DNA of 59,946 nt, the filler included. It is 3 parts of 3 records of this genome, joined end to end, with 100 filler letters (N's around TTAATTAATTAA, not from the genome) between each part and the next. Parts side by side here need not be neighbours in the genome. Positions count along the whole stretch, not along the records: positions 48,425 to 59,946 come from DRR723986_1325; 2 more parts are not named here. One strand, written 5' to 3'. Positions 5,749-59,946 of this stretch are shown here, piece after piece. A program made the position numbers and the translations under genes. The notes under the pieces are model-generated. The model saw only the letters and a program-made list of their open reading frames with translations. It ran no database searches and was not told the origin of the DNA. Numbering within the stretch: the first letter of the stretch is position 1; each line of letters starts with the position of its first letter.

Positions 5749-7698
5749 TCATGTGCCTGTGACTGCGGGGACCCAAATCGTGAAAATTGCCCCTCCTGTT
5801 GGTTGATTTCGGGCTGAAATACGCCCTCCGGTTTGCTGGATCAGAGTTTGACTTATGGAGAGCCCTAACCCAGTGCCTTCGCCCAGTTTGGTGGTATGAA
5901 AGGGGTCGAATACCCGTTTCATATGCTCTGCATCTATGCCGGGTCCCGTATCAGAAACAGACAGTTCCACGCCATCACGCTCATTCCTAGGCGATGGTTT
6001 GACCCTGATGTCCAGCTGACCGTTCCCCTCCATGGCTTGAATGGCATTGACCATCAGATTGACAAGGACCTGCTGCATCTCCCCAGTATCTATCGCAACA
6101 TTTGGTGCCGCATCAAATTGAGTGGAAATTTGCACGTTCTGTTGGGGATGCACGTGGGTGATTAGGCTTTTGCAGTCGTCGATCAACATTTCCAGCGATG
6201 TGCCTTCGCTGGAGGCCGAAAATTCAGTTGGGCGGGCAAATTGCAATAGCTTTCCAACGATCCCGTCAATGCGCTGTACCTGCTTATCGATCAGGGTCAA
6301 TTCGGTTTCCACGCCGGCGGCGTCCGGTCCCAGGGTCTGGCGCACGACGTCGACATTGCCCTGAATGACCGCAACTGGATTGTTGATTTCATGGGCAACC
6401 CCTGCAGTAATTTCCCCGATCGAGGCGAGCTTTTCAGAGAGCACCAATTGCTGGAATGTCTCTTCCAGCTTTTCATTGGCATCGCGAAGCTCTGAGGTGC
6501 GCCGATCAACGCGATCATTCAGCTCTTCTGCCCAACTGCGTAGAGCCTGATCCCGTTCTTGGACCTGATCAAGTAATGTATCTAGATGGGTTGCGACTTG
6601 GCTGATTTCATCCTTGGATCCGACGCTGCCGTTGCGCGCTGACAGATCCCCGTTCTCCACACGGCTCATGGTTTTGGTCATACGTTCTAGCGGCGAAAAA
6701 ATCCCGCGGGCCATCCTAAGGAAAAGCGGAATAGACAAGGCAAGTACGATGACCATGGCGGCGAGCATGGTTAGGTAAGCAGATTTTTTTGCGTTGGCAA
6801 ATGGCGCCTCTAAGAAGCCAACATACAGCATCCCAACTCGGTTTCCGAAACTATCAATGAGCGGCAGATAGCCCGAAATGTACCAATCGTTCACGACAAA
6901 GGCGCGGTCCAGCCAGGTTCGGCCCTGATCCAAAACGGCGGCTCGGACTTCGGCAGAAACGCGGGTTCCCAACGCGCGCACGTCTTCAAACAGGCGCACG
7001 TTGGTCGAAACACGAACGTCTTCGAGAAACAAGGTTGCGGTGCCCTGCCTTTCCCCGCCCGTCGCCGCATTGAGGTACACCAGCGCGTTGATGGTATCGA
7101 TGAAATCAAGATTCCTGTTCAGCAAGATCCCCCCGATCAGGACACCTTGATGCCCTAGCAGGTCAACGGGGGCCGCGGTATGGACCACCATGCCGCGATC
7201 CTCGACCACACGATCGGTGGGCACTGCGGCTTCGGTGTCGATCAGATCCACCCGCGCACGTTTAGCCAAGTCAGGGAAGTTGGCTATGGTATCGGCCGGG
7301 AAGATGTCAATTTGCGACGACAGCTCGCCCCCAAGCGCGGCCTGAACCACTGGCCAACGTTGGGCTTTGCCTGTCTGTGTCGCGGGAAGATAATATAGAA
7401 AGTCGAGCGCCTGCTGAACGCGTTGCTGTTCTAGGTATGCGGCTCTCGTCTCCGCTGGCCCGGTCAAGGCAAATTGGAAATGGCGGGAATCTGCAATGGC
7501 AGCGATACCTGCCCCTGTCCCGGCCAAAATGCGGCCCAGATATTGTTCGGCAATGCGTAAATCACTGTCGACTTTGGCAATCAAGAGCTCGTCGTAATCG
7601 GATGTCCAGCGGGTCATTGCCAGCAACATCAACAAGGGCAGTAAAACCACAAGAGGCGCCAGTGCGAGCACCAACAGTTTCAGGCGTACTGAATTCAA
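5749..7698 (-). CDS. Membrane sensor histidine kinase (Cache-HAMP-HisKA-HATPase), probable partner of the 1729-3075 regulator
   Basis: TTG start after GAGGGGG; two TM segments; AGVAHEINNP H-box; NLMVNAIQA; DTGPGI; GTGLGLSI. Confidence 0.85.
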   Translation of the reverse strand: MNSVRLKLLVLALAPLVVLLPLLMLLAMTRWTSDYDELLIAKVDSDLRIAEQYLGRILAGTGAGIAAIADSRHFQFALTGPAETRAAYLEQQRVQQALDFLYYLPATQTGKAQRWPVVQAALGGELSSQIDIFPADTIANFPDLAKRARVDLIDTEAAVPTDRVVEDRGMVVHTAAPVDLLGHQGVLIGGILLNRNLDFIDTINALVYLNAATGGERQGTATLFLEDVRVSTNVRLFEDVRALGTRVSAEVRAAVLDQGRTWLDRAFVVNDWYISGYLPLIDSFGNRVGMLYVGFLEAPFANAKKSAYLTMLAAMVIVLALSIPLFLRMARGIFSPLERMTKTMSRVENGDLSARNGSVGSKDEISQVATHLDTLLDQVQERDQALRSWAEELNDRVDRRTSELRDANEKLEETFQQLVLSEKLASIGEITAGVAHEINNPVAVIQGNVDVVRQTLGPDAAGVETELTLIDKQVQRIDGIVGKLLQFARPTEFSASSEGTSLEMLIDDCKSLITHVHPQQNVQISTQFDAAPNVAIDTGEMQQVLVNLMVNAIQAMEGNGQLDIRVKPSPRNERDGVELSVSDTGPGIDAEHMKRVFDPFHTTKLGEGTGLGLSISQTLIQQTGGRISARNQPTGGAIFTIWVPAVTGT

Positions 7699-15813: not shown

Positions 15814-16347
15814 ATGAATACGTACCCAACTGGCTGGTTCGACCTATCACCGGAGAAGTATGCGGATTTAGGGACGATGCTGTATCTGTCGGGCCTTACA
15901 AGTACTCATAGGCAGCGAACACTGGCGCAATCTATATACGTCTTTGAAACGCCGCTTCGATTGGGTCAGTACCAGATCTTTCGCCAGAACGGATTCCCAC
16001 GCGGTTTCGTCACCTTTGGTGGGTTAAGCCCCGAATCCGAATACCGGCTGGGGGTCAAAGGGGAACACCTGCGCGATAGCGATTTTACCAGCGGATCCTC
16101 TTTTTGGATCCTCGATTTGGTCGCACCATTTGGCCAAGTTCGCCAAATTGTTGACATGTTGAAATGTGAAATTCCACATCAACGCGTTCGGACGAACCGA
16201 ATGGACAGTGATCAGTCAACCCCGCGGATTGTGGAATGGAACAAAGACGAGCAAGGCAAAGTGCATATGCGACTCTATCGGCGAGAGGACTTTGTCCGCA
16301 CGCTGATCGAGGAGGGTTTGCCTGATGGTATTGCCGGTTCCAACTGA
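15814..16347 (+). CDS. Toxin-activating lysine acyltransferase (HlyC/RtxC/TAAT family)
   Basis: TSTH (SxxH), PLRLGQY, GFVTF..LS, DFTSGSSFWILDLVAPFG. Confidence 0.8.
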   Translation: MNTYPTGWFDLSPEKYADLGTMLYLSGLTSTHRQRTLAQSIYVFETPLRLGQYQIFRQNGFPRGFVTFGGLSPESEYRLGVKGEHLRDSDFTSGSSFWILDLVAPFGQVRQIVDMLKCEIPHQRVRTNRMDSDQSTPRIVEWNKDEQGKVHMRLYRREDFVRTLIEEGLPDGIAGSN

Positions 16348-17281
16348 CGCTTTCTTGATTAACATCACCGGAGACACGACCGGGTTTGTGACGGGCGATC
16401 CCCCCAACGACGCAACTGGTGATCTAGATGCAACTGTTGAATTCCGAAACCCAAACTGGACCTTGCTCACGACCACTTGGGAAATCTCGGATGACCCAGG
16501 CATAGGTACAGCCACGATCAACCCTTTCACTGGCGAATGGGTCTATACAGTTGATCCCGCCGAATTTGCAGCCCTAGATGATGGCGAATTTACCACGGAC
16601 AGTTTCGTAGTCGAAGTAACGGCACTGGCTTTGAATCCAGGGGGACAGCTACAGACTGAAACCGCGCTCCAGACCGTGACAATCGCGATCGAGGGGGTCT
16701 GCTTTGCGGCCGGTACACTGATCGAAAGCGAACGTGGCCCCGTTCCGGTTGAAACCTTGCAGGCCGGAGACCGCGTTGCCACATTGGACAATGGATTTCA
16801 GCCGGTCCGATGGATCGAAAGCAGCGACCAAAGCCTGACCAAACTCCTGAGCAACCCAAAGCTCTGGCCTGTTAGGATTCGTGCCGGGGCTCTTGGCCCT
16901 GATTGCCCGAGGCGGGATCTATTTGTGTCTCAGCAACATCGAATATTGGTCGGCGGGGCACAGGTCGAGATGCTGTTTGGGACCGACGAAGTTCTCGCCT
17001 CGGCAAAATCGCTCTGCCATTTGTCAGGAATTGAGATTTGCGCCCCGACAGATAGTTTGACCTATGTTCATCTTTTGCTCGATAGACATGAAATTCTAGA
17101 GGCCGAAGGGGCACCTGCCGAAAGCCTCTTCTTGGGCGAAGAAGCCCTTTGTTCGCTGACGTCAGAGGCGCTGCAAGAACTCGCGGATATTTTCCCACAA
17201 ACAACAGTGCGTGGTAGGTGTATTTTTGGCCAAGCGGCCAGAAAAATACTGAGAGATAAGGAAGCGTTGGTCCTGAGTTGA
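16325..17281 (+). CDS. VCBS-like domain fused to a Hint (bacterial intein-like, type B) domain
   Basis: GTATINPFTGEWVYTVD..LDDGE..TDSF; Hint starts at Cys126 CFAAGTLI..VETLQAGDRV; VSQQHRIL; YVHLLLDRHEILEAEGAPAESL. Confidence 0.85.
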   Translation: MVLPVPTDAFLINITGDTTGFVTGDPPNDATGDLDATVEFRNPNWTLLTTTWEISDDPGIGTATINPFTGEWVYTVDPAEFAALDDGEFTTDSFVVEVTALALNPGGQLQTETALQTVTIAIEGVCFAAGTLIESERGPVPVETLQAGDRVATLDNGFQPVRWIESSDQSLTKLLSNPKLWPVRIRAGALGPDCPRRDLFVSQQHRILVGGAQVEMLFGTDEVLASAKSLCHLSGIEICAPTDSLTYVHLLLDRHEILEAEGAPAESLFLGEEALCSLTSEALQELADIFPQTTVRGRCIFGQAARKILRDKEALVLS

Positions 17282-29500: not shown

Positions 29501-29600
29501 NNNNNNNNNNNNNNNNNNNNNNNNNNNNNNNNNNNNNNNNNNNNTTAATTAATTAANNNNNNNNNNNNNNNNNNNNNNNNNNNNNNNNNNNNNNNNNNNN
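29501..29600. other. Assembly gap with artificial six-frame stop linker
   Basis: N-run containing TTAATTAATTAA. Confidence 0.97.
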
Positions 29601-48324: not shown

Positions 48325-48424
48325 NNNNNNNNNNNNNNNNNNNNNNNNNNNNNNNNNNNNNNNNNNNNTTAATTAATTAANNNNNNNNNNNNNNNNNNNN
48401 NNNNNNNNNNNNNNNNNNNNNNNN
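48325..48424. other. Assembly gap with artificial linker
   Basis: N-run containing TTAATTAATTAA. Confidence 0.97.
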
Positions 48425-48440
48425 CTGGCGGAGAGGAAGG
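48425..48440 (+). repeat. att core, displaced copy
   Basis: CTGGCGGAGAGGAAGG, identical to 59931-59946; followed by non-tRNA sequence. Confidence 0.9.
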
Positions 48441-48559
48441 CCGCCGCACCCGTGTCCGCACGTTTCCGCCGCCGACCAAATATCCTGTGGAAACATAAGG
48501 CTTAGGTGGACAATCCTTCCACTTCTCACCGTGACAAACCGCACACAAACACCGATAAT

Positions 48560-48581
48560 GGGTGGGTAGCCGGATGGGTAG
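48560..48581 (+). promoter_or_regulatory. Integrase arm-type site pair
   Basis: GGGTGGGTAG and GGATGGGTAG at a 12-bp period; same motif at the other end. Confidence 0.65.
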
Positions 48582-48607
48582 TTCTCCGGTCAAGCGGAGC
48601 GATTGTC

Positions 48608-49810
48608 ATGGCGCGGACACTGAACCGACTGACGGCCAACCAGATCAAGGCCGCCAAGGGAAAGCAGATGCTGCCGGATGGTGGAGGGCTCTACCTGCAA
48701 GTTACTGGAACTGACGCGCGATCCTGGCTGTTTCGATACCGATGGCAGGGCAAGCGTCCCGAAATCGGCCTTGGCCCCTACCCTGCCATTACACTTGCCG
48801 AGGCCAGGCGCCGGGCTGACGTTGCAAGGTCGGCCCTCGCTGATATGCCGCCACGAGATCCGAAGGCGGTGCTGAAGGGCGAAGGTGATAAACCTATTCC
48901 CACATTCGGCGAGTATGCGAATGAGTGGATGGACGCAAATCTTGGCGATTACACGAACGCCAAGCACCGCCAACAATGGCGCAACACATTGGATGCTTAT
49001 GGCAAGCCTCTGCGGGACAAGCCGATAAACGCCATCGAGACCGCCCATATTCTCGAAATTCTGAAACCCATCTGGAATAAAAAACGGGAAACCGCGACGC
49101 GCCTCAGGGGCCGTATAGAGCGCATTCTGGACGCGGCAAGTTCCGAAGGCTTCCGGACAGGTGACAACCCTGCTCGCTGGCGCGGCCACCTGAAGAACCT
49201 GCTACCGAACCAGAAGAAGCCGGTGAAACATCATGAGGCCCTGCCCTTTGCAGACGTGCCAGCCTTCATGAAACGCCTGCAGGAACGCGAAGCTCTCAGT
49301 GCCCGAGCGCTGGAGTTCCTGATCCTGACATGCGTGCGCTCTTCCGAAGGACGCGGAGCCAAGTGGGCCGAAATCGACCTTGATGCCCGCCTGTGGGTGA
49401 TCCCGCCCGAACGAATGAAGGAACCGAGGGAGCATCGCGTGCCCCTCAGTGACGCCGCCGCCGCAATCCTGGAATCCCTGTCCGATACGAAGACCGGCAA
49501 CTACGTCTTCCCGAATATGAGCGGCAAGGGCTGCATTTCCGAAACGTCACTTCGAAAGTTGATGGACCGCATAGGCACCACCGGTCCGACCATTCACGGC
49601 TTCCGGTCCACGTTCAAAGACTGGGCGACCGAGACGACGAACTTTTCCTGGGACCTTTCCGAACAGGCGCTGGCGCACATTGTCGGGGATCAGACGGAAC
49701 GGGCTTACCGAAGGGGCGATGCGCTAGAGAAGCGCCGTGCGCTGATGCAGGCTTGGGCAGATTATTGTGCAGGCAATGCCACTGGCAAGGTGGTGCGGTT
49801 ACATGGATAG
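48608..49810 (+). CDS. int: P4-like tyrosine integrase with arm-binding domain
   Basis: DGGGLYL..W.FRY..GLGPYP.ITLAEAR; catalytic R (CVRSSE), K, HGFRS, LAH, AYRR. Confidence 0.95.
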   Translation: MARTLNRLTANQIKAAKGKQMLPDGGGLYLQVTGTDARSWLFRYRWQGKRPEIGLGPYPAITLAEARRRADVARSALADMPPRDPKAVLKGEGDKPIPTFGEYANEWMDANLGDYTNAKHRQQWRNTLDAYGKPLRDKPINAIETAHILEILKPIWNKKRETATRLRGRIERILDAASSEGFRTGDNPARWRGHLKNLLPNQKKPVKHHEALPFADVPAFMKRLQEREALSARALEFLILTCVRSSEGRGAKWAEIDLDARLWVIPPERMKEPREHRVPLSDAAAAILESLSDTKTGNYVFPNMSGKGCISETSLRKLMDRIGTTGPTIHGFRSTFKDWATETTNFSWDLSEQALAHIVGDQTERAYRRGDALEKRRALMQAWADYCAGNATGKVVRLHG

Positions 49811-50612
49811 ATTAGAACGAATGATCCGAGAGGCTGCTGAGCGCAGATTTCCTGATGTCCCTCTCGCGCCTTCAGGCAGGACGTTAGACGATATACCTGA
49901 CGAAATGATGGCGGCATGGGCAAGGAGTGTACTGAGAGCGCTTGCGGACATTCCAAACATTTCTTTCAAGACAGAACCTGATCCAATTGCAGAGGCGATG
50001 AGGCAGGCCACGTTGTATGACCTGTTCAAGTCTTCCGTCTTAACTGCACCTACTGTTGGAGAGGCAGACGAAGTTGTCAGCCGCCTGTTTTCAGAAGCCG
50101 TATCACTTGCAGTGCACCTGCGCATCGGAATCGAACGCAAAGAGTTACCTCAATTCGGACTAAAGCGACCTGGCGCGAGCTACAGAGATACAAACACGAC
50201 AAAATGGGGCGGCATACAGGCGACTAGTGTCACGTCAGCGACCTTGATGGAGATGGGGGGGCTAAGCCGTCGGCAGGCGTGCAGGAAGGTGGCTGCCATA
50301 CTTGCTCGCCACGGTGTTGATGTAGCGGGCGAGACTATTCGCCGAACCTGGTTTGGTCTCTGGGATGACTGGAGCTGCCTGCATCCAACCGAGTTCGGAG
50401 ATTCCCTGCCTCCGCTGGCGATTGACATCTGGATCGGTGAATTGCCCGGGCTCGCATGGGGGTCTGAGGGCAGTAAGGATTTAGAGGCGTTTACTGAATA
50501 CGTTCTTTCGAAACGAAACGACTTGCTAAATCGTTATATCCCGAAGGAACTGGCAGAGGCTTGCGAAGACTGGAAAGCCGAATTGATGAAAATGGGGGAT
50601 AACGGGGTATAG
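49803..50612 (+). CDS. Hypothetical protein overlapping the int stop, possible HTH
   Basis: LSRRQACRKVA..GETIRRTW helix pattern. Confidence 0.65.
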   Translation: MDRLERMIREAAERRFPDVPLAPSGRTLDDIPDEMMAAWARSVLRALADIPNISFKTEPDPIAEAMRQATLYDLFKSSVLTAPTVGEADEVVSRLFSEAVSLAVHLRIGIERKELPQFGLKRPGASYRDTNTTKWGGIQATSVTSATLMEMGGLSRRQACRKVAAILARHGVDVAGETIRRTWFGLWDDWSCLHPTEFGDSLPPLAIDIWIGELPGLAWGSEGSKDLEAFTEYVLSKRNDLLNRYIPKELAEACEDWKAELMKMGDNGV

Positions 50613-50685
50613 ATTCCCCCCACAACAGGCTCGACCATCTCCATACACCCCCACGCAATTCCGTGTGGCGAGTATGGAGGCCAAA

Positions 50686-50889
50686 ATGTCACAGAAAGAA
50701 CAGGTCGCTTATTCGATCCCAGGCGCTTGCGATGCGTCAGGCTTCGGCAAAAGCACCCTTTATGAAGAGATTGCCAAAGGCGCGCTCCGGGCTCGGAAGA
50801 TGGGCTCTCGGACGTTTATAATGGCGGAAGACCTGAAGGCATGGCTGGAAGCCCAGCCGGAAGCCCGCATCACTTACACGAAATCCTGA
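50686..50889 (+). CDS. Excisionase/AlpA-like HTH protein
   Basis: GGAGG RBS; AYSI..GFGKSTLYEEIAKGALRARKMGSRTFI..DL.AWL. Confidence 0.85.
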   Translation: MSQKEQVAYSIPGACDASGFGKSTLYEEIAKGALRARKMGSRTFIMAEDLKAWLEAQPEARITYTKS

Positions 50890-50896
50890 AAAGAAA

Positions 50897-50925
50897 ACCC
50901 GCTCCAATGGGCTGTCGGAGCGGGT
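50897..50925. other. Hairpin after xis (terminator-like on the - strand)
   Basis: ACCCGCTCC..GGAGCGGGT preceded by an A-rich run. Confidence 0.45.
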
Positions 50926-50975
50926 CTCTAATTGCGTCTTGCCAGGCGTGTCACCCAATCGCGCGAGGAAATCGA

Positions 50976-51170
50976 ATGACCCGCAAAATATACAAGAACC
51001 GCACACGAATGCAACGCCAGCTCAGCCTGTTTCACTGGGCGGCGATGCAACCTCAAACACCCCACCTTGCAGCCGTCCGCTACGTACAGGGCTTTGGCGT
51101 ACGTTCACCGTCCCTTGCGCTGCTCATAGCCGAGCATGCAGGGCTGCACGTGGGGGCTGATCATGACTAA
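50976..51170 (+). CDS. Small hypothetical protein
   Basis: GAGG RBS; MTRKIY..QLSLFHW; overlaps the next gene. Confidence 0.55.
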   Translation: MTRKIYKNRTRMQRQLSLFHWAAMQPQTPHLAAVRYVQGFGVRSPSLALLIAEHAGLHVGADHD

Positions 51171-51534
51171 GCAACCTGAGTCCGCGCTCCAGAAGGCCGT
51201 GGTGGAATACCTTCGCCTTGCCCTTCCGCCGCACGAGGCCGTCTTTTGGCACACACCGAACGGCGGCTACCGCGCCCCGCGTACTGCCGCCCGCCTCAAA
51301 GCTGAAGGTGTCGTCCCAGGTGTTGCGGACATTATCATCCTCTGGGCAGGCCGCTGTATCGCCATTGAACTGAAGGCGAAAGGCGGTAGCCAGTCAGCAG
51401 CACAGAAGGCGTGGGCGGACCAATTCACCACCGCAGGCGGCGCTTATGCCGTGTGCCGCTCTGTCGAGGCCGTGGAGCGCTTCCTTGATGCGGCGGGCAT
51501 TCCTTTACGGGCCAGTGTGGGAGGCGCGTCATGA
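51163..51534 (+). CDS. VRR-NUC domain nuclease
   Basis: ESALQ, HTPNGG, GVVPGVADI..IELK..Q (PD-(D/E)xK). Confidence 0.85.
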   Translation: MTKQPESALQKAVVEYLRLALPPHEAVFWHTPNGGYRAPRTAARLKAEGVVPGVADIIILWAGRCIAIELKAKGGSQSAAQKAWADQFTTAGGAYAVCRSVEAVERFLDAAGIPLRASVGGAS

Positions 51535-51767
51535 GCAAATACCCTCCTGGATATTTCGGGCTCCGCGAATGGCTTGGGCCGCCTATCGGGCTGTTGTTTG
51601 AACTTCGCCAGGATCCGGCTTTTCCGAACCGGCTACGGGCTTCCCTGAAAGCCATCAGCCTGCAGTTGGTCGGGCTTGTTGATGACGATGAGCTTGGGCT
51701 CATCGATACGTCACCAGAAGAACGCTTGCGCTCTGCCCAACAATGGAGGGAGCGCAAAGATGATTGA
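51531..51767 (+). CDS. Small hypothetical protein
   Basis: GGAGG RBS; ATGA coupling to VRR-NUC. Confidence 0.55.
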   Translation: MSKYPPGYFGLREWLGPPIGLLFELRQDPAFPNRLRASLKAISLQLVGLVDDDELGLIDTSPEERLRSAQQWRERKDD

Positions 51768-53226
51768 TGCTTACAGGCTATCTGCCGCAGCTAACCTCGA
51801 ACGCGATTACGGCGGCACGCAAATCCGCAATGGATCGGATGCTGACAGTAAACACCAATGGCCGGATCCAGAGCCAATCGACACCGATGAAGGAACCCCT
51901 GCCACGTTTCCACTGGATGCGCTCCCTGCGATGATGAAGCGGGCTGCGCAAGACATAGCCAACGGCACGAAATGCCCACCGGCGCTGGCTGCCGCGTCAG
52001 TCCTGTCTGTCGCTTCCTTCTCGGTACAGAACCATTTCGATGTGGAGTTTGCCCAGCGTCAGAGACGCCCTTTGTCCCTATGTATCTTGACGGTTGCGGC
52101 ATCAGGTGAACGTAAGTCCACGGTGGATCGGTATGCGGCAAGAGGTGTCTACGAATACAGGGTACAGCTGGCTCTCGAACATGCAGCCCGGGAAAAGGAC
52201 ATTGCCGACGCCAAAAAGGCAAAGGCGGATCACCTCCCTGACCCGTTGCCAGACCCCAATATCGTCATTGGCAATATGACCTTGCAGGGCATCTTCCGGG
52301 CTTTTGCAGAGGGGCAATCAAGCCTTGCACTCTTTTCCGATGAGGGCGGCGAGTTCCTTGGCGGACATTCGATGAAAGCAGAAAACCGCCTCGGTTCCCT
52401 GGCGGGGCTTTCAAAGTTCTGGGATGGCGGGCTGCAGGCTTACAAGCTGAGAGGCACCAAGGACAAATCCGAGACACTGACGGCCGATGATTGCCGCCTT
52501 GCTGTCCACTTGCAGGCCCAGCCCGTTGCCTTGCAGCCTTTCCTTGCTGACCCGATGGCAAAGGGACAGGGCCTCCTCGCACGCTGCCTGATCCACAAAC
52601 CGGCTTCCACGATTGGCACGCGGATCATGACGCTGGAAGAGTGGCAGGCTGATGGTATGACCGTCGAAGTGCAGTCCTTTGCCATGCGCGTTAAGACCTT
52701 GCTTAGTCGGCCCGTGAGCCGGGATGATGGCGCAGTCCAGCGTGACCTTCTGCGCCTTACCCTGGAAGCCATGCAAGCATTGCTGGACTACACGAACGAG
52801 GTTGAGCGATCCCTTGCCCTTGCAGGCGACCTGGAAGGTATGAGCGACCTTGTAAACAAGCTGTCCGAACAGGCCGCTCGCATTGCAGGAACATTTGCCG
52901 CCTTTGACAACCAGACCGAAGTGTCAGGCCGCACAATGGAAGACGCTATTCGCATCGCCCGCTATTTCCTTTCCGAAACTATACGGCTTGCGCGGCTGGT
53001 TCCGCAGGAGGCAGGCACCAAGGACGCCATCGCCATCGCCCGGTGGCTGCATCAGCGCGGCGGTCGCGTGAGCAACACCGATCTCAACAACAGCTTGCCC
53101 AATCACCTCCGTCGTAAGAAAGCACGCGCGAAGCCGATGGCGTTGCTTCAGGAAGCGGGATGGATCCGTCAGTCCGGCAAGTACTGGGAGCTGAACCCGA
53201 CCAGTGCCGAGCGGGGCTGGGTATAG
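51760..53226 (+). CDS. DUF3987/YfjI-family replication protein (P-loop helicase-like with C-terminal wHTH)
   Basis: FPLDALP, AASGERKS Walker A, FSDEGG, FWDG, QP, GLLARCL, QAARIAG. Confidence 0.85.
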   Translation: MIDAYRLSAAANLERDYGGTQIRNGSDADSKHQWPDPEPIDTDEGTPATFPLDALPAMMKRAAQDIANGTKCPPALAAASVLSVASFSVQNHFDVEFAQRQRRPLSLCILTVAASGERKSTVDRYAARGVYEYRVQLALEHAAREKDIADAKKAKADHLPDPLPDPNIVIGNMTLQGIFRAFAEGQSSLALFSDEGGEFLGGHSMKAENRLGSLAGLSKFWDGGLQAYKLRGTKDKSETLTADDCRLAVHLQAQPVALQPFLADPMAKGQGLLARCLIHKPASTIGTRIMTLEEWQADGMTVEVQSFAMRVKTLLSRPVSRDDGAVQRDLLRLTLEAMQALLDYTNEVERSLALAGDLEGMSDLVNKLSEQAARIAGTFAAFDNQTEVSGRTMEDAIRIARYFLSETIRLARLVPQEAGTKDAIAIARWLHQRGGRVSNTDLNNSLPNHLRRKKARAKPMALLQEAGWIRQSGKYWELNPTSAERGWV

Positions 53227-53242
53227 GATCGGACAGGCGTGG

Positions 53243-53483
53243 GCTTATCCGTACGCTGCTTATTCTGCTTATTTAGCGCATTGTTGGCGGGATCTGGAAT
53301 GAATATTGGAGATTTGGAGAAGCGGGCCCGTTGCTTAAGCCTGCTTATACCGGCTTATTTTCAGCGCCGCCCCGGAAAAATAAGCAGCAATAAGCAGGCA
53401 TAAGCAAATCGGCTGCTTATTGCGATCTGTAGTGTCTATTCAGCGTTTGAGCGCAGGCGCAGCAAATAAGCAGAATAAGCAGC
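53243..53483. repeat. Iteron-like array, putative replication origin
   Basis: 11 copies of GCTTAT/ATAAGC (consensus CTGCTTATT) in both orientations; perfect 20-bp inverted repeat 53255-53274/53464-53483. Confidence 0.75.
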
Positions 53484-53935
53484 AAGCTGAGCTGGTAGCG
53501 GTCCGGTCAGGAGGTCAGTCGCAATCAGGAAAGCGTACAGCTGGACACCGTAGTGAAGAGCGTCGTGGACACGATCATACGGAGCAAGGTTGCCACGGGC
53601 CCGGCAATGAACATAGCTGTTCCGATGCTAAACGCCTTGATGCTGCCGCGCCAGTACTCCCTATTCGCTGCAACGCAATCCTCATGGATCTTGTCAGCTA
53701 CAACTGGCTTGAAGTCGTCGTAACCGGTTGTCAGGGGTGTGATCGGAATGCGTCCTGTCTCACCGCCAGCCAGATCCAGCAACATACTGTAAATTTTATA
53801 TTTTATATAAGGGTCTGGTTGGTAACCCCGCCTGAGTTTGGTGCCTGTTGCGAACAATCACGAAAACTGGCGAATTGCACACCTAACATCAGCGTGGTTG
53901 AATGATTCGCAATCTTGTGTTGCGGGGGGGGTGGA

Positions 53936-55270
53936 ATGTTTGAGATCAACAATCTCACGAATCCGGTCGTGCTCGGTCAAGCAATTGGTGCGTTGGCGAT
54001 TTTGGCAGCGCTATCTGCCGGCCTTGCTGGAGCGTTCAAACAGAAGCTACCCAGGTTGGCACACTCGATAAGCTTTGTTCTTGTTGGGGCCGCTTCAACC
54101 GTGTTGGGCGCATTTGGATTTTCTGATGGTGGCTCTCCGGCTTGGCTCGTCGCGGGTCTTCAGTATGGTCTTCCCTGTGCTGTAGCGGCGATAGCAGCCC
54201 TTCTCTTGGGGGTTATCTCAAAGAATGCCGAATTTTTGTGGGCATACGGCGTTCTTGCGATATCCACTGTTGTTGGTGGGGCCGGAAGCAATCTGGCGAT
54301 TTACTACGCGGACGATGAACGTATCTTCGAAGACCCCTTGATGAAAGGATTTGCCGCGATTGAAGACCATTACCCGCTCGCTTGGGCAGAGCTGAAACAG
54401 GATCTGAGAGCTGCGGACTTGAGCGTAGGCAAGAGTGCGGCGCCTATCGTTCAAAGCTTCTACGCGAAGCACCAGCCTCAATTTTTTAGGATGGCTAGTG
54501 ATGAGGCTGTAGCCAGCCTTCAGAAGTCCGTCACGCGCAAACTCGAATATCTGGCTAATTCGAATCCTGGAGCCTGTGTGTCCTTTGTCTCCGGTAAAGT
54601 GCCCAATGAGATCTCATCTATACTGCCCTACAACATCAAACTCGAAGAAGCAGAATTGATTGAAAATCTGATCCAGTCATCAGGTGGTTCCAGCTCTGGT
54701 GTGGCGGGACAGGAAGAAGCCGAAGAATTGTTCGTTTCAGCAATTCTCACGCTAGCAGATCGAGAGCCTAATCTATTCTACGCTTATGTGGGAGAAAATG
54801 TGAACGGCACACCCAGCGATAAAGAGACCTGCGAATCTTGGATTGCGATAAACAGGATTATCGAAAGCCGTCCGGTAGATGAGTATGCGAGGTTTGTTCG
54901 AAGTGATTTGTGGCTCGTTTCTGAGAGCTCAATGTCAGACTCCGCTGGCGAAGATTTGGCTCTTGCTGCTTTGTACGCGGATGCCGCGATAACTCGCCGT
55001 GAATTACCGATCCAGATAGATCAGAGTACCACTCTGGTGGATGTGAGTTTTGATGGGGAAGCATACCATTATCGGTATGAACTTTCTGGACTTTCCGGCT
55101 CAGCTGGAGACTTCAGGAAATGGTTTGAGAGCCAGAGCGCCCCCAATATCTGTATTGGAGAGGATACAGCGCCGCTTATCGAGTTCGGTGTTTCGCTCAT
55201 ATACGAGTATGAATTAAACGGCGCTACTGTTTCTATACCTGTGGATCAGGCGCTCTGCCAAAAGCTGTAG
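53936..55270 (+). CDS. Cargo: multi-TM protein with soluble C-terminal domains
   Basis: Four N-terminal TM helices; C-terminal LPIQIDQSTTL..YRY..C..YEY resembles the AspS/PA3611-like fold. Confidence 0.7.
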   Translation: MFEINNLTNPVVLGQAIGALAILAALSAGLAGAFKQKLPRLAHSISFVLVGAASTVLGAFGFSDGGSPAWLVAGLQYGLPCAVAAIAALLLGVISKNAEFLWAYGVLAISTVVGGAGSNLAIYYADDERIFEDPLMKGFAAIEDHYPLAWAELKQDLRAADLSVGKSAAPIVQSFYAKHQPQFFRMASDEAVASLQKSVTRKLEYLANSNPGACVSFVSGKVPNEISSILPYNIKLEEAELIENLIQSSGGSSSGVAGQEEAEELFVSAILTLADREPNLFYAYVGENVNGTPSDKETCESWIAINRIIESRPVDEYARFVRSDLWLVSESSMSDSAGEDLALAALYADAAITRRELPIQIDQSTTLVDVSFDGEAYHYRYELSGLSGSAGDFRKWFESQSAPNICIGEDTAPLIEFGVSLIYEYELNGATVSIPVDQALCQKL

Positions 55271-55277
55271 TAAGGGT

Positions 55278-55841
55278 ATGATGGGAAAACTGCTTTGGAG
55301 CCCAATTCGTCCCGGTGAGAACTGGGCTCAGACACTGGTGCGGGTGGCCGGAAACCTGCTTCGTTGGATTATTGGCCTTCCGATAGTAGTTGGTTTGCTC
55401 ATCTGGGGAGGGGTGGCGGGTTACGGCTGGTGGAGTGACAGGCCTCAACGAATTACCGAACTTGAAGGCATCGTAATTGGAATGACTTCGACGGACGTCA
55501 CGCTGCTGAAGGGAGTGCCCAAATCGAACGGCCCCGAGGAAGGAAATGACGGTTCCTGGACAGAGGGGATGTTTTTTGGCGATTTGTTGGTGCTCCTCAG
55601 TGGGCTGTCCCAAGACAAAATGACAGTTTACAGAGTGTGTCACACCAATCCGGGATACTATGATAAGGTCTCGGGCATTACCGGGTCAGACAGCGAGAAG
55701 TTTGTCATCGCCCACCTCGGTGAGCCAGATGAAGTGGTGATTGATGATGATAAGCTGGGCAAGGCTTCGTACTTCGAACGCTACAACCTGATGGTTCGCT
55801 TCGCTAAGGCTCAGGTGGATGCAATTTGTGTGGGAACCTAG
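55278..55841 (+). CDS. Cargo: single-TM hypothetical protein
   Basis: N-terminal TM; GMTSTDV..KG.P and HLGEPD repeats. Confidence 0.65.
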   Translation: MMGKLLWSPIRPGENWAQTLVRVAGNLLRWIIGLPIVVGLLIWGGVAGYGWWSDRPQRITELEGIVIGMTSTDVTLLKGVPKSNGPEEGNDGSWTEGMFFGDLLVLLSGLSQDKMTVYRVCHTNPGYYDKVSGITGSDSEKFVIAHLGEPDEVVIDDDKLGKASYFERYNLMVRFAKAQVDAICVGT

Positions 55842-55856
55842 CTGGGCGGCCGCCAC

Positions 55857-56084
55857 CTAGTCTGCTTCCCACCAGCGCTCTGGTTCGTCTAGGCCAGGCC
55901 GGGTGCCTTCCAGTTCATCAAGTTCGGCATTGATGATTTCAGCCAGCGAGCGGTACTGCGCGACCTCATCTCCATGAGCCATGTCCCCGCCCTTCAATTT
56001 GTCGAAGATAGCGCGCGCTGGAACGCTGCGGAGCGCTCTTATGATGTTGTCCAGTCGAGCATAGCGGATGCGGTCAAAGCACAT
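55857..56084 (-). CDS. Cargo: small hypothetical protein
   Basis: 75-aa ORF converging on the upstream gene; no motif. Confidence 0.4.
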   Translation of the reverse strand: MCFDRIRYARLDNIIRALRSVPARAIFDKLKGGDMAHGDEVAQYRSLAEIINAELDELEGTRPGLDEPERWWEAD

Positions 56085-56421
56085 ATGATCGTGCTTAGTT
56101 CCTGGGCACCGCCCAAGAAAGGCGGTTCGCCTGAATTAGTTGGGGAAAGAGATCTGTTCCCGGCGTCTGTTTTGAGCCAAACCAGACATTCATTTGCGAC
56201 CGCGGAAGCGGCGGGATATGGCCCTTTTTTAGACTTTCCTATGCAGCTGTATTCGTCGGCGTTTTTACACAGTGGCGCGGGATCAAGGGGGGCCAGGTCA
56301 GTGGGAATGATTACGATTGGATGGCGTAATGAACGTGAAATTCTAATCCCGTCCGCTGATCGCTGTTGCTTCACCCCGCTTTTGCAGCTTCACTCTTCAG
56401 GACATTAAACGGGGGGTACAA

Positions 56422-57201
56422 ATGCCAAAGGGCGAAGGAAAGCGTCTCGGATTCGTTACTACATTTGCCGTCACGCTGGTTTTCATTCTATGGATTTTAC
56501 TTGTGGCCGCGATTGCTTTCGGCATCCAAAGCGGCACTCTTCAATTATTGTGGACAAATATTGAGGATGGCCAAGCGCAAATTCTCTCCTCAACAATTGC
56601 TGCATTGGGCCTCGTGACTTCGGCAGTTTTAGTGCCGTTTGTGTTTAAGGATCGCATTCGCGATCTGGACAGCGCTGTCGGCGAAATGCGCGAAACCATT
56701 GAAAACTTCGAAAGTGATGCCAGTCAGAAAATAGAGAAGCTTTCGGCTCTACTGAATGAGAGGATGGAAGAGCTCGAAAGGCGCGGCAGTGAAGATGTCG
56801 ATCGATTGGGGGATGTCCTGGAAGAGATTAGGTCTGCAGTCATCTTGTCGGTCAGTGATGGGCAGATTTCTGATCCGAAGCATGCAAAGGTCTTCGTCCA
56901 ACACCTCTATAACAACGCGGTCTCTGCTCTGAAGAGACGTGTGCGTGAGAAACCTTATCTCCGAGAAATCACAAAGGACCAAATCGCCAATCTTCGCACG
57001 ATGTCGAAGCAATATCTGGACAAGCTGCTGGAGACACAAATCATCACGCCCGCGGAACGTACGATTGTGGATCGAGTAAAGGAATTTGCCTATAGACGTT
57101 CGGACTTTGTCATGTCTGACATCACTGCGATCAACAAAACGCGCAGCGACTTCGATAATGCTTTTGGCGAAAGCTCTGTTTCGGATGTAGACGCAGTCTA
57201 A
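56422..57201 (+). CDS. Cargo: two-TM plus coiled-coil protein
   Basis: Two hydrophobic helices followed by a heptad-rich segment. Confidence 0.7.
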   Translation: MPKGEGKRLGFVTTFAVTLVFILWILLVAAIAFGIQSGTLQLLWTNIEDGQAQILSSTIAALGLVTSAVLVPFVFKDRIRDLDSAVGEMRETIENFESDASQKIEKLSALLNERMEELERRGSEDVDRLGDVLEEIRSAVILSVSDGQISDPKHAKVFVQHLYNNAVSALKRRVREKPYLREITKDQIANLRTMSKQYLDKLLETQIITPAERTIVDRVKEFAYRRSDFVMSDITAINKTRSDFDNAFGESSVSDVDAV

Positions 57202-57321
57202 CGCCCGACAAAGGTCCGCTTTCGGCGATTTTCGGAGCCCGGCCATAAGGCTTTCATTGTCCCAGGCTTTGTTCGATCCAACGCGCCTTTTTAAGTAGTA
57301 TTTGAAATTAAGGAGTGACGA

Positions 57322-57693
57322 ATGAAAAGGAAATATTTGCTGATTTTTTCGGTGTTCATGGCGGCTTGCACTACACCTGTGGGTCATACAAACCGTCCCA
57401 TGATGAATTATGATCGCGATACTGAATATAATATTACCGATTCAGAAGATGGTTTTAGCGTTACGGTTTTCTATTCTCGATACCAATTCATTCCTGAAGG
57501 TTCCACCGCAGCAACAGCCTGCAAACAGCAGCTTACCTCGATAGCGTATGAGCACGCGGATGGCGTCGGCAGAAAAATAGAGCCGATAAATGAGCAGCGG
57601 ATCCGCATCTCCATGGGACGGAACGGGCTTACTGGGGTGACGTCTTGTCAGGCGTATGGTGAAGCAAAATGGGCTAGTTCCCCAAGCGAATAG
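57322..57693 (+). CDS. Cargo: predicted lipoprotein
   Basis: AAGGAG RBS; MKRKYLLIFSVFMAA-C lipobox. Confidence 0.75.
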   Translation: MKRKYLLIFSVFMAACTTPVGHTNRPMMNYDRDTEYNITDSEDGFSVTVFYSRYQFIPEGSTAATACKQQLTSIAYEHADGVGRKIEPINEQRIRISMGRNGLTGVTSCQAYGEAKWASSPSE

Positions 57694-57697
57694 TCTC

Positions 57698-58135
57698 ATG
57701 AATATGACGCTCAAGCATCTCTGTTTAATTCTGATGATGTTTAGTTCTTGCTCGTTCGCAGCAGCAGATGGCATTTTGTGCAATGCTGACAAAGCGATGG
57801 CACTGGTTCGACAAAACAACTCAAAAGAGTGGGATTCTATCGAACCGGAGTCGGGTACTTTTTTTCTGACCGTTGAACTCGACTCCGCCAAGGGCTTCTC
57901 TGTCGGAGCGTTAGGTGACCCAGTACCATATTTGTCCGGCGACGACTGCCAAATGTTAGAGTCGGATAAATCAACAGCGATAGTCTGTGACAACATTATG
58001 AGTTCGTTCAGGCTAGATGTGGAGACAGCACAGTTTGTGTTCGCACAGCATTCTGGGCTCTGGAGATCAGCTGAAAATGGCCAGCTTGTTACTGTTGTTG
58101 GTCGGTGCACAACGTATAGAGGCCACAACAATTAA
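57698..58135 (+). CDS. Cargo: predicted exported protein
   Basis: Signal-peptide-like N-terminus; four Cys in the mature region. Confidence 0.6.
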   Translation: MNMTLKHLCLILMMFSSCSFAAADGILCNADKAMALVRQNNSKEWDSIEPESGTFFLTVELDSAKGFSVGALGDPVPYLSGDDCQMLESDKSTAIVCDNIMSSFRLDVETAQFVFAQHSGLWRSAENGQLVTVVGRCTTYRGHNN

Positions 58136-58331
58136 ACTGATATTTCCATCCTAAACAGCGTACACATTGTAAATCTCCTTTTCTTCAAATTCTGAGCACG
58201 GCTAATGTCGGCTTCCGGCGAGTTTCAGCCTCTGCCCCCCTACTCCCGCGAACGACTGCAATCGGGCCTCATGGCAGACATTGCTCACCTTGCCGAATAA
58301 CTGTATCAATTTGATATTGATGGAGCGGGCA

Positions 58332-58766
58332 ATGGCAGGCGCTGACAACCGTAAAAACGGGCGCAATACGGATGGCACCTTCACCAAGGGCAACTCCGGA
58401 AAGCCACGCGGAGCACGCCACAAGGCGACCCAGGCAGCCCTTGCATTGATCGACGGCGAAGGCGAGGCCCTGATCCGCAAAGCGATCGACATGGCGCTGG
58501 AAGGTGACAGCGTTGCGCTCCGTCTTTGCCTGGAACGCCTGGCCCCTCCCCGCAAAGATGCGCCGGTTCGTTTCGCATTGCCCGTCATGGCAGGTGCTGA
58601 GAGCGCCGCATCCGCTATGGGCGCTATCCTTAGTGGCGTCGCCAATGGTGACCTTACACCCTCCGAGGCCAGAGCACTTGCGGGCTTGGTTGAAGGATAT
58701 CGCAAGGCGCTGGAAACAACGGAACTGGAAGCCCGTCTCAGGGCACTGGAGGAGCGGCAAGCATGA
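58332..58766 (+). CDS. DUF5681-like protein (putative small terminase-like)
   Basis: GTFTKGNSGKPRGARHK; KAIDMALEGD..ALRLCLER; ends ELEARLRALEER. Confidence 0.7.
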   Translation: MAGADNRKNGRNTDGTFTKGNSGKPRGARHKATQAALALIDGEGEALIRKAIDMALEGDSVALRLCLERLAPPRKDAPVRFALPVMAGAESAASAMGAILSGVANGDLTPSEARALAGLVEGYRKALETTELEARLRALEERQA

Positions 58767-58954
58767 ACTTGAAAGGACAGATAGTCCGCCTGGAGCGCAA
58801 ACATTGTCCTGATGGTGAGTTTGCGCATTTGTCAGATGCTGAACTGGTCACCCGTATCCAACATCTCGCAACGATACTGAACCAGTGCGGAGACCTTCCT
58901 TCGGAAATTGCAGCCCAGCTTCAGACGACCGGACTATGGGAAGCATCTCCGTGA
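58763..58954 (+). CDS. Mini-protein 1 of coupled array
   Basis: ATGA overlap; MNLKGQIVRLER. Confidence 0.7.
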   Translation: MNLKGQIVRLERKHCPDGEFAHLSDAELVTRIQHLATILNQCGDLPSEIAAQLQTTGLWEASP

Positions 58955-59178
58955 ACAGCATTGAACGCCGACTGAATGCAATTGAGAAGGTTTCGATCCA
59001 GCGCGGAAACGATGCTACAAGGATGAGTCAGTTCAGGGAACGCCTCGCCCGCGCCAAGGAGCGTTCGGGCCTTGCACAGCGAAGGTCAATCTGGGAGGAC
59101 GATCCACCACCGCCTGGGCTGAACCTTGCGGAGCTTCTGGATCTTGCGCGACGCCGGCATCGGGAGTGGCAAGAATGA
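58951..59178 (+). CDS. Mini-protein 2 of coupled array
   Basis: GTGA overlap; MNSIERRLNAIEK. Confidence 0.7.
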   Translation: MNSIERRLNAIEKVSIQRGNDATRMSQFRERLARAKERSGLAQRRSIWEDDPPPPGLNLAELLDLARRRHREWQE

Positions 59179-59423
59179 ACAGCATGGAAAGGCGCATGAA
59201 AGCGCTTGAAAAAAAAGCTGGGCCAAGTTGCGACGAGATGGACGTAACCATCGTTCGATTTGTTGCACCACTGCCTGACCTCACTGGCCCAGACCTAGAT
59301 ACACCCGCCAGCGGCTGGGCGATTATCCGCTCCGGCCCGAATGCTGGCATGACGCTGTATCCACATGAAGGAGAAACATGGGCGTCCTTTGAACAACGTG
59401 TCGATGAGGCGAAGGTCGCATGA
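59175..59423 (+). CDS. Mini-protein 3 of coupled array
   Basis: ATGA overlap; MNSMERRMKALEK. Confidence 0.7.
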   Translation: MNSMERRMKALEKKAGPSCDEMDVTIVRFVAPLPDLTGPDLDTPASGWAIIRSGPNAGMTLYPHEGETWASFEQRVDEAKVA

Positions 59424-59614
59424 CTATCAAGCACCGCTTAACCCGATTGGAGAAAGAGAACTCGCCCGTCTACCACTGCACCGAGGACATCCCGACGCCT
59501 GCGCTGGAGGCGATGGTCCGGAAGGCTTACCGGGAAGGAAACTACACGCCGGAGGAGGCTGCGCTGTATCGCAAGCTTGAAGATAGCGGCTTTGACCTTG
59601 GGGCGGCCCAGTGA
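59420..59614 (+). CDS. Mini-protein 4 of coupled array
   Basis: ATGA overlap; MTIKHRLTRLEK. Confidence 0.7.
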   Translation: MTIKHRLTRLEKENSPVYHCTEDIPTPALEAMVRKAYREGNYTPEEAALYRKLEDSGFDLGAAQ

Positions 59615-59820
59615 ACCTGAAGCCACGCATCGCCCGTCTTGAACGGAACGCGCCCGCGGTTCGGGCCGACGTGGATGCCCATATCGATGGCGTGGTAGCC
59701 GCAAGCCTGAAAGCCGCGTTCGAGCTATGGCCGGAAGAGATGGCGGAAGGCCTTAGTCCAGGGGAGCGCGCTATCCTTGCCCGACTGGAGCCTGACCTGC
59801 TGAGCCGGATTTGTCCGTAG
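59611..59820 (+). CDS. Mini-protein 5 of coupled array
   Basis: GTGA overlap; MNLKPRIARLER. Confidence 0.7.
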   Translation: MNLKPRIARLERNAPAVRADVDAHIDGVVAASLKAAFELWPEEMAEGLSPGERAILARLEPDLLSRICP

Positions 59821-59855
59821 CTGACCGCCCGAAATTGGGTGAGACTGGAGCATGT

Positions 59856-59877
59856 GGATGGGTATATGGATGGGTAG
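59856..59877 (+). promoter_or_regulatory. Integrase arm-type site pair
   Basis: GGATGGGTAT and GGATGGGTAG at a 12-bp period. Confidence 0.65.
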
Positions 59878-59930
59878 ACAACCCAATCCAAAAAAATTGT
59901 TGTTATATTCCAATTGGTTACACGGATAGG

Positions 59931-59946
59931 CTGGCGGAGAGGAAGG
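59931..59946 (-). tRNA. att core matching the 3' end of a tRNA-Ser (body presumably beyond the window)
   Basis: Reverse complement CCTTCCTCTCCGCCA: acceptor strand CCTCTCC, discriminator G, CCA; only the last 15 nt are visible. Confidence 0.6.

Follow-up and report, generated by a model that had tools for sequence, protein, structure and literature searches.

A compact att-bounded element with an int/AlpA/DUF3987 backbone and a DUF5681 operon: a probable phage satellite targeting tRNA-Ser

What is an 11.5-kb contig that begins and ends with the same 16 nucleotides and encodes an integrase, an excisionase-like protein and a replicative helicase, and how would it move between cells? This question is raised by positions 48425-59946 of the stretch of 59,946 nucleotides analyzed here (the window), which consists of three contigs placed end to end, with artificial linkers of the form N44-TTAATTAATTAA-N44 at 29501-29600 and 48325-48424. 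Because the linkers are artificial, features that abut or span them are not genomic neighbours. The element in question is one whole contig of 11,522 bp. A sequence-only reading had taken it for a complete satellite-like element at a tRNA-Ser gene, belonging to an alphaproteobacterial satellite type packaged by a helper phage or a gene transfer agent (GTA). Our analysis indicates that it is very probably a complete, integrative and self-replicating element targeting tRNA-Ser, and that it is fairly likely to be a helper-phage-dependent satellite of the int/AlpA/DUF3987 class, similar to the minimalist chromosomal islands inducible by phages (PICMIs), the phage-inducible chromosomal islands (PICIs) and the integrative mobile elements encapsidated in virions (VEIMEs). 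The host is probably a marine Hyphomonas-like alphaproteobacterium; the G+C contents of the three contigs are nearly equal (0.545-0.547).

The end regions of the contig are organized as follows.

48425-48440, no strand: left att core copy, 16 nt, CTGGCGGAGAGGAAGG, the same as 59931-59946; start of the contig
48441-48607, no strand: P' arm with two GGRTGGGTA arm-type repeats (48560-48568 and 48572-48580)
59821-59930, no strand: P arm with two arm-type repeats (59856-59864 and 59868-59876)
59931-59946, no strand: right att core copy, 16 nt; final bases of the contig and of the window

The first 16 nt of the contig, CTGGCGGAGAGGAAGG, are thus also its last 16 nt, and this direct repeat resembles a tRNA acceptor end, CCA included, in reverse complement. 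The GGRTGGGTA motif occurs twice at 120-150 nt inside the left end and twice at 55-75 nt inside the right end; these four matches in the window compare with 0.42 expected, and four were reached in none of 100 shuffles. Judged from its pattern, this arrangement fits what is expected of arm-type sites for an integrase bearing an arm-binding domain. Two core copies with an integrase beside one of them constitute the arrangement of a tRNA-targeting island, the tRNA being seen in the relatives only.

These relatives were collected with a profile of DUF3987 homologs, which gave 80 loci in species-representative genomes, and four close relatives (L140-L143) were drawn from metagenome contigs. Of the 80 loci, 53 have an upstream integrase in the same orientation. 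A copy of a tRNA 3' end, 14-52 nt long, lies upstream in 31 loci, each with an intact tRNA downstream on the opposite strand, and in 27 of these 31 delimited loci, no more than 600 nt separate the left repeat from the start of the integrase. The 27 delimited elements are 5.9-15.7 kb long (median 8.1 kb) and target the genes of tRNA-Ser (12 elements), tRNA-Leu (5), tRNA-Thr (3), tRNA-Arg (3), and tRNA-Tyr, -Phe, -Asn and -Glu (one each). Two loci bear directly on the element. In L019 (Aliishimia), the 3' end of tRNA-Ser(GGA) carries a core identical to that of the window. In L141 (a Tara scaffold), a 7.96-kb element is flanked on either side by chromosomal DNA; the 3' end of tRNA-Ser(GCT) forms its right core, and after its left core comes the arm sequence that the window contig also has. 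L142 resembles L141 in its att arrangement: a 15-nt version of the left core flanks the related elements in both, and both have the two-plus-two layout of the arm repeats.

Two further observations concern the att sites of the close relatives. In L142 (9477-9700), the right core is followed by a tRNA T-arm fragment and then by what appears by eye to be the start of an integrase-like open reading frame (ORF), an arrangement that suggests tandem insertions at one site. L140 shares the backbone and has a 59%-identical integrase, with a 26-nt hairpin-forming direct repeat (6734-6759 and 16347-16372) serving as att, and is 9.6 kb long.

The claim that the element sits at tRNA-Ser can thus be kept in part. 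No tRNA gene was found by ARAGORN, and no Rfam family, in the whole window, and the other two contigs contain nothing resembling the chromosomal (attB) flanks of L140-L142, while the same core does lie at the 3' end of tRNA-Ser in L141 and L019. It is therefore the relatives, not the window, that support tRNA-Ser as the target and the element as complete. The search for the same gene set at tRNA-Ser in relatives, proposed as a check by the sequence-only reading, did succeed.

The way in which the contig ends is informative in itself, because it terminates exactly at the core on both sides. Random opening of a circle would rarely (about 1 in 11,500) fall exactly there, which counts against a plain circle. 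An assembly graph would give a core-to-core contig if both ends branched at the core into two or more neighbours, which could be attL and attP, attR and attP, or several chromosomal settings. The base preceding the left core (C) is also the base preceding the right core, while the chromosomal base there is G or A in L141 and L142. The shared C is weak evidence for an excised form or for multiple insertion contexts in the sample.

Between the att sites, the following features were recognized; the details of the cargo region are given further below.

48506-49810, + strand: P4-type tyrosine integrase (Arm-DNA-bind_3, Phage_int_M and Phage_integrase in Pfam; phrog_1)
49767-50612, + strand: integrase-overlapping ORF of 281 aa, family-less
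50665-50889, + strand: AlpA/Xis-like HTH_17 protein (PF12728; phrog_66 'excisionase and transcriptional regulator'; TIGR01764 excisionase family)
50841-51170, + strand: orf109, a conserved backbone ORF (84% identical in L141, 57% in L142)
51136-51534, + strand: VRR-NUC nuclease (PF08774; phrog_824, phrog_93 endonuclease, phrog_5702 Holliday junction resolvase)
51531-51767, + strand: orf78, a small conserved ORF overlapping the helicase start (83-96% identical in L140-L142)
51676-53226, + strand: DUF3987 (YfjI-family) replicative helicase (PF13148, E 1.7e-68; phrog_2373 DNA helicase)
53243-53480, no strand: iteron array of 11 GCTTAT/ATAAGC units in both orientations (TRF arrays), the probable replication origin
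53525-58135, no strand: cargo region of about 4.7 kb
58281-58766, + strand: DUF5681 protein (PF18932; probable start 58332, 144 aa)
58763-59820, + strand: five translationally coupled mini-genes (58763-58954, 58885-59178, 59166-59423, 59420-59614 and 59611-59820)

The module order att-int-orf-xis-VRR-NUC-DUF3987-repeat array-cargo-DUF5681-mini-genes-att, originally read from the letters alone, was confirmed by ORF calls and by Pfam, PHROGs and NCBIfam, as was the orientation of almost all genes on one strand (+ for all except two small ORFs). Also upheld was the absence of virion and transfer genes: among the 22 ORFs scanned against Pfam and PHROGs, there was no match to capsid, portal, large terminase, tail or relaxase families, nor to lysis or head/morphogenesis genes. 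An oriT-type protein and a partition gene were likewise not found in the element by these two collections, and coupling protein and type IV secretion genes had no Pfam match there. The relatives agree with this, since capsid, portal, large terminase and tail genes number zero among the 137 ORFs of the 27 delimited elements.

In the integration module, the integrase probably starts at Met35 (48608), the residue at which the NCBIfam match begins, and it is 92% identical to the integrase of L141. The 281-aa ORF that overlaps it has no match in Pfam, PHROG, NCBIfam or PADLOC; its counterpart in L141 occupies the same place and is 27% identical, and 19 of the 27 delimited relatives have a same-strand ORF whose start lies no more than 120 nt from the end of the integrase gene. 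By its location, the 281-aa ORF is a positional analogue of the iolg/icg gene of PICMIs. As for the small backbone genes, orf109 has no Pfam or PHROG match, and the VRR-NUC gene is present in L140 and L142 and missing from L141.

In the replication module, the helicase probably starts at 51760, K147 and D222-E223 are invariant in the alignment of DUF3987 proteins (A1), and its homologs are named 'YfjI family protein' by their sources. One study showed 5'->3' helicase activity for a PriCT-DUF3987 protein that has Walker motifs and ends in a small C-terminal domain (PMC11724360). The 238 bp that follow the helicase gene directly contain 11 of the 26 GCTTAT sites of the window, and a 20-nt perfect inverted repeat (I2) is part of this array. 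At the corresponding place, L140-L142 carry an array of the same density, with GGCGAAC as the unit instead. The helicase of the window is 83-97% identical to those of L140 and L141 over residues 61-440 and only 40-42% identical over the last 76 residues, whereas L140 and L141, whose iterons are alike, are 74% identical to each other over these 76 residues. Thus, the C-terminus of the helicase and the iterons change together, as the identity pattern tracks the iteron unit across the three elements. On this sequence pattern, the C-terminal region of about 76 aa is a probable origin-recognition domain for the helicase's own iteron origin.

The DUF5681 protein is the gene product on which a packaging role would depend. 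Its C-terminus is a long helix ending in ...LEARLRALEE, and its AlphaFold2 (AF2) model has a mean predicted confidence (pLDDT) of 88.5. Close homologs number 2,205, the top 120 being 68-90% identical and mostly 143 aa long, and at E <= 1e-3 the family comprises 7,650 clusters (50% identity). It is found in 14 of the 80 relative loci at 46-68% identity, against about 35% for the integrase and helicase there; conservation so far above that of these two enzymes is as expected if an external partner constrains DUF5681.

Gene neighbourhoods were examined at 23 further DUF5681 sites, drawn from the genomes behind the relative loci and from 61 genomes belonging to the same order. Ten of them have a large terminase directly downstream, in most cases following a ParB-methylase gene; nine of these have a Terminase_6C match, and L095 was counted by its 40% identity in alignment A5. 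At one site (L127), the terminase slot is filled by a 449-aa ORF that has no Pfam match, and in eight sites the terminase is absent. The remaining four are island-type sites: an integrase accompanies an AAA_25 helicase in L136 and L138, an integrase fragment is present in L139, and L137 is ambiguous. Two phages show the same neighbourhood. In Leptospira phage LE3, a DUF5681 homolog that the annotation calls hypothetical overlaps with the beginning of the annotated large terminase, with the portal gene next, and in Salmonella phage STGO-35-1 DUF5681 lies directly upstream of the large terminase, according to its authors' description. Finally, the slot right after DUF3987 is occupied by DUF5681 in L141, L142 and L036 and by a phrog_51 small terminase in L039 and L070. 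By analogy of gene position, this argues that DUF5681 is a small-terminase-like protein. Alignment with hhalign of the island-type and terminase-adjacent DUF5681 profiles gave a probability of 98% over about 60 N-terminal columns.

Searches by structure and text yielded little. Foldseek of DUF5681 against the PDB and BFVD gave no match at E <= 1e-3, the VIA wide search returned no more than generic helical hairpins (residues 87-144, Z <= 7.1), and the DUF5681 profile matched only designed proteins, and no solved small terminase (TerS), among PDB sequences. The ESM Atlas returned the family itself only. Of four longer fused forms, none was informative and one was a merged gene model. A full-text literature search turned up DUF5681 in a single paper, as an entry of its virion proteome table.

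Several side observations were made on the loci of this family. L039 (11672-12106) and L070 (5854-6291) are Parvibaculum islands at tRNA-Ser with the canonical small terminase (phrog_51) after DUF3987. A compact unit of a ParB-N6-methylase, DUF5681 and a Terminase_6C large terminase recurs, often beside a large serine recombinase (L123-L126, L129, L130, L095 and L098-L100, in genomes G002-G052), and downstream of it come restriction-modification, caspase or host-like genes, not portal or capsid genes; this could represent a separate kind of mobile or hijacking unit, or else a frequent prophage remnant. L136 and L138 combine a matching P4-type integrase and DUF5681 with an AAA_25 helicase that replaces DUF3987, and the packaging-like module therefore combines with different replication modules.

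Downstream of DUF5681 lies the mini-gene operon. Each of the five mini-proteins in the window begins with a helix of the form R-[LIM]-x-x-[LI]-E, with Q for R in the first; the count of five includes this first one (mini1), which the motif search overlooked. Among 17 loci examined, 12 have one to four ORFs starting with R-[LIMV]-x-x-[LIM]-E downstream of DUF5681, including L081 and L082, two small contigs from virus collections, and mini-genes with the motif are also present in L140-L142. A DNA-level, pac-like repeat was considered as an origin of the RLxxLE motif and rejected: synonymous codons differ between the copies, and the motif is therefore a protein feature. The terminal LEARLxALE helix of the island DUF5681 resembles this motif. 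The mini3 family (14 aligned sequences, 5 invariant residues) has a confident model (pLDDT 88.3) consisting of a helix, a small sheet and a helix, for which no structural neighbour was found (best Z 3.5). The ratio of nonsynonymous to synonymous substitution rates (dN/dS) is 0.11 for DUF5681 and, relative to L140, 0.12 for orf78, 0.19 for mini3, 0.32 for mini4 and 0.65 for mini5, the last from few changes. Judged from these substitution patterns, the small genes of the element are under purifying selection. That the mini-proteins act as adaptors or decoys is speculation.

The two virus-collection contigs deserve a separate description. L081 (MT836812.1, 8,660 bp) and L082 (IMG/VR, 9,002 bp) carry DUF5681 and RLxxLE mini-genes and then tail-type genes (Neck1/tail completion and tape measure in both, and a GTA-gp10/tail-tube-like gene in L081). 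L081 additionally encodes a Mob_Pre relaxase; in L082, a DnaG-like primase is accompanied by a second replication protein. Capsid and terminase genes were seen in neither.

Taking the position data and the operon together, we tentatively entertain, as an unlikely but testable possibility, that DUF5681 is a very large, unrecognized family of phage small terminases or adaptors, whose island subfamily swapped its C-terminal half and forms a packaging-hijack module with the mini-proteins. The new C-half would be the long 'LEARLxALE' helix, the subfamily would travel with one to five R-L-x-x-L-E mini-proteins, and the module would consist of a DNA-recognition subunit and interchangeable adaptors or decoys that redirect the helper's large terminase to the island.

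The cargo region (53525-58135) has a G+C content of 0.45-0.55, against 0.56-0.63 in the backbone, and its ORFs are as follows.

53525-53857, - strand: cargo ORF
53915-55270, + strand: cargo ORF of 451 aa
55278-55841, + strand: cargo ORF
55857-56084, - strand: cargo ORF of 75 aa (orf75m)
56422-57201, + strand: cargo ORF of 259 aa
57322-57693, + strand: cargo ORF
57656-58135, + strand: cargo ORF

Inspected by eye, several of them appear to have hydrophobic N-termini and may encode membrane or secreted proteins. None has a significant Pfam, NCBIfam or PADLOC family, and PADLOC, run on 10 ORFs, gave a single weak LeoBC match (E 0.0011). The cargo has no tblastn match across the 80 relative loci, and the best ESM Atlas score for the 451-aa ORF was 0.80, which provided no lead. 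One cargo ORF, orf75m, has counterparts of 79-82% identity in L140 and L143 that directly follow the helicase gene; the window element appears to have gained two ORFs (53915-55841) by insertion between orf75m and the origin.

From this anatomy, a cycle can be proposed. The P4-type integrase, acting on the four arm-type sites, would recombine the 15-16-nt core with the 3' end of tRNA-Ser, and the AlpA/Xis-like protein, perhaps together with the integrase-overlapping ORF, would drive excision. The DUF3987 helicase would recognize its own iteron origin via its C-terminal domain and amplify the circle, and VRR-NUC may resolve or process the products of replication. DUF5681 and the co-transcribed mini-proteins would then steer the large terminase and capsids of the helper to the island DNA.

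Several results weigh against a helper-dependent satellite. A DnaG-like primase lies just upstream of DUF3987 in about 20 of the 27 delimited relatives, whereas PHROGs revealed no separate primase of this kind in the window element. A small-terminase-like gene occurs in only 5 of these 27 relatives (DUF5681 in three, phrog_51 in two). The C-terminal halves of the island and terminase-adjacent DUF5681 proteins do not align; since only about 60 N-terminal columns are common, binding of DUF5681 to a large terminase can only be inferred. Gene position is what points to a terminase role, and depositors label the protein hypothetical. Many of the methylase-DUF5681-terminase loci have no portal or capsid gene after them and are therefore not plainly helper prophages. 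The viral contig collection contains no close relative: one DUF5681 locus is 56% identical and seven DUF3987 loci are 29-35% identical. The helper, excision and packaging are steps that we infer, as are replication and the role of the mini-proteins. An alternative is an integrative plasmid-like element (integrase, helicase and origin) that persists by integration and is spread by other means, such as vesicles, transformation or mobilization, and in which DUF5681 and the mini-proteins serve as DNA-binding regulators or in phage defence; the 22 relatives without any terminase-like gene, the match of the island DUF5681 in its N-terminal domain only, and a cargo resembling membrane or secreted proteins would all suit it. 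Such an element, however, would sit less easily with the failure to find a relaxase, an oriT-type protein or a partition gene, with the canonical small terminases that fill the same slot in L039 and L070, or with a DUF5681 conserved as if externally constrained. Moreover, PICMIs, which share the three core genes, are proven satellites without a terminase gene according to their description (PMC10803314). We consider the plasmid-like explanation rather unlikely.

The other explanations fare worse. A stand-alone contig with identical ends and without a chromosomal flank in the window could be a free small circular plasmid, or its terminal repeat could be an assembly artefact with nothing integrated. 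This is improbable in view of the long odds against opening at the core, the position of the L140, L141 and L142 relatives between chromosomal flanks, the integrase with its arm sites, and the lack of any megablast match of the contig in 72,556 plasmid records. The phage-type integrase, the excisionase-like and VRR-NUC genes, and the occurrence of the DUF5681 family in phages might instead point to a decayed remnant of a larger prophage or of an integrative and conjugative element (ICE), and the sequence-only reading had named homologs that are only decayed pieces of such elements as evidence against itself. The homologs proved otherwise: the relatives are delimited by repeats, measure 5.9-15.7 kb and share the backbone, none of their 137 ORFs is a structural or conjugation gene, the genes of the element are intact and under purifying selection, and the contig has no megablast match in 50,697 phage records. 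A remnant is thus highly improbable. As for packaging and transfer by a GTA instead of a phage, RcGTA-like clusters are common in Alphaproteobacteria, and one DUF5681-bearing virome contig has a GTA-gp10-like gene. RcGTA-type particles, however, hold roughly 4 kb, far less than the 11.5 kb of the element or the 5.9-15.7 kb of its relatives, and the element has no GTA gene. On size, a GTA is an unlikely helper, and transfer by this route has hardly any likelihood. A helper-phage-dependent satellite therefore remains our preferred reading.

If this reading is true, the 'minimalist' satellites with int, AlpA and DUF3987 occur beyond Vibrio, in marine Alphaproteobacteria, where they target tRNA genes, and the element is a clean example of origin specificity mapped to the C-terminal 76 or so residues of such a helicase. 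Packaging recognition would become a testable role for DUF5681 with its 7,650 sequence clusters, and the operon of DUF5681 and mini-proteins would be a new handle for metagenome searches of satellites and their helpers.

Comparison with known systems places the element among several of them. PICIs, including the Staphylococcus aureus pathogenicity islands (SaPIs), have int, AlpA/Xis, a replication initiator-helicase with its own adjacent iteron origin, and a small-terminase-like gene that can redirect helper packaging. The element shares with them int, AlpA and a replication initiator with an adjacent specific origin, and its DUF5681 gene, small-terminase-like by position and related to the terminase-adjacent type in its N-terminal domain only, may correspond to the packaging gene; it differs in that homologs of the capsid-morphogenesis and Ppi/Rpp genes were not found in it and in that DUF5681 is not a recognized TerS family. 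P4-like satellites have Psu, Delta, Sid, an alpha-type primase and cos; only the integrase type is common to them and the element, whose 22 ORFs have no match to the Psu, Delta, Sid or alpha-primase families in Pfam and PHROGs. The CP4-57-type islands of E. coli have an intA-alpA-yfjI layout, and the element has the same backbone of P4-type integrase, AlpA and YfjI/DUF3987, but it is much smaller, carries other cargo and has the extra DUF5681 operon. Tycheposons, described in Prochlorococcus, are reportedly small elements that target tRNA genes and combine a tyrosine recombinase with a replication module and cargo; compared by description only, the element is like them in being a small tRNA-targeting marine element with the same three components.

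In gene content, the element also corresponds to PICMIs. Their published model comprises an integrase, AlpA (PF05930 or PF12728) and DUF3987 (PF13148) or a DUF5906 'primase', with fis as the integration marker, and PICMI115 is a 6.1-kb element in which a gene overlapping the integrase is needed for excision, whose concatemers are packaged by a virulent phage, and for which the paper reports no terS, sid or ppi homolog (PMC10803314). The match of the module order to satellites, as claimed from the sequence, holds for this model: the same int/AlpA/DUF3987 genes (PF00589, PF12728 and PF13148) share one strand of the element and together span no more than 4.7 kb, and the element thus has the three genes of the model. 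As far as the published description goes, both also have an ORF overlapping the integrase (like iolg) and accessory cargo, and both are without capsid-remodelling genes. The element differs in its target, the 3' end of tRNA-Ser (by its relatives) against fis, and no fis-like gene was found in the contig with Pfam; in its host, alphaproteobacterial against Vibrio(naceae); in its size, about twice that of PICMI115; and in having VRR-NUC and the DUF5681/mini-gene operon, where PICMI115 is described without terS. The element does not represent a new satellite type: similar marine virion-packaged elements are in print. VEIMEs, as described, have a tyrosine integrase, AlpA, a primase/helicase and no major capsid genes, with small terminases in some and alphaproteobacterial hosts for some (PMC9618062). 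They are defined by concatemers in virus particles, whereas the element is known from its genes and compared by description. Like VEIMEs, it is marine and capsid-less and combines an integrase, AlpA and a primase/helicase, and some VEIME modules contain small-terminase homologs; an element of this kind is already covered by the marine VEIMEs as described there (PMC9618062).

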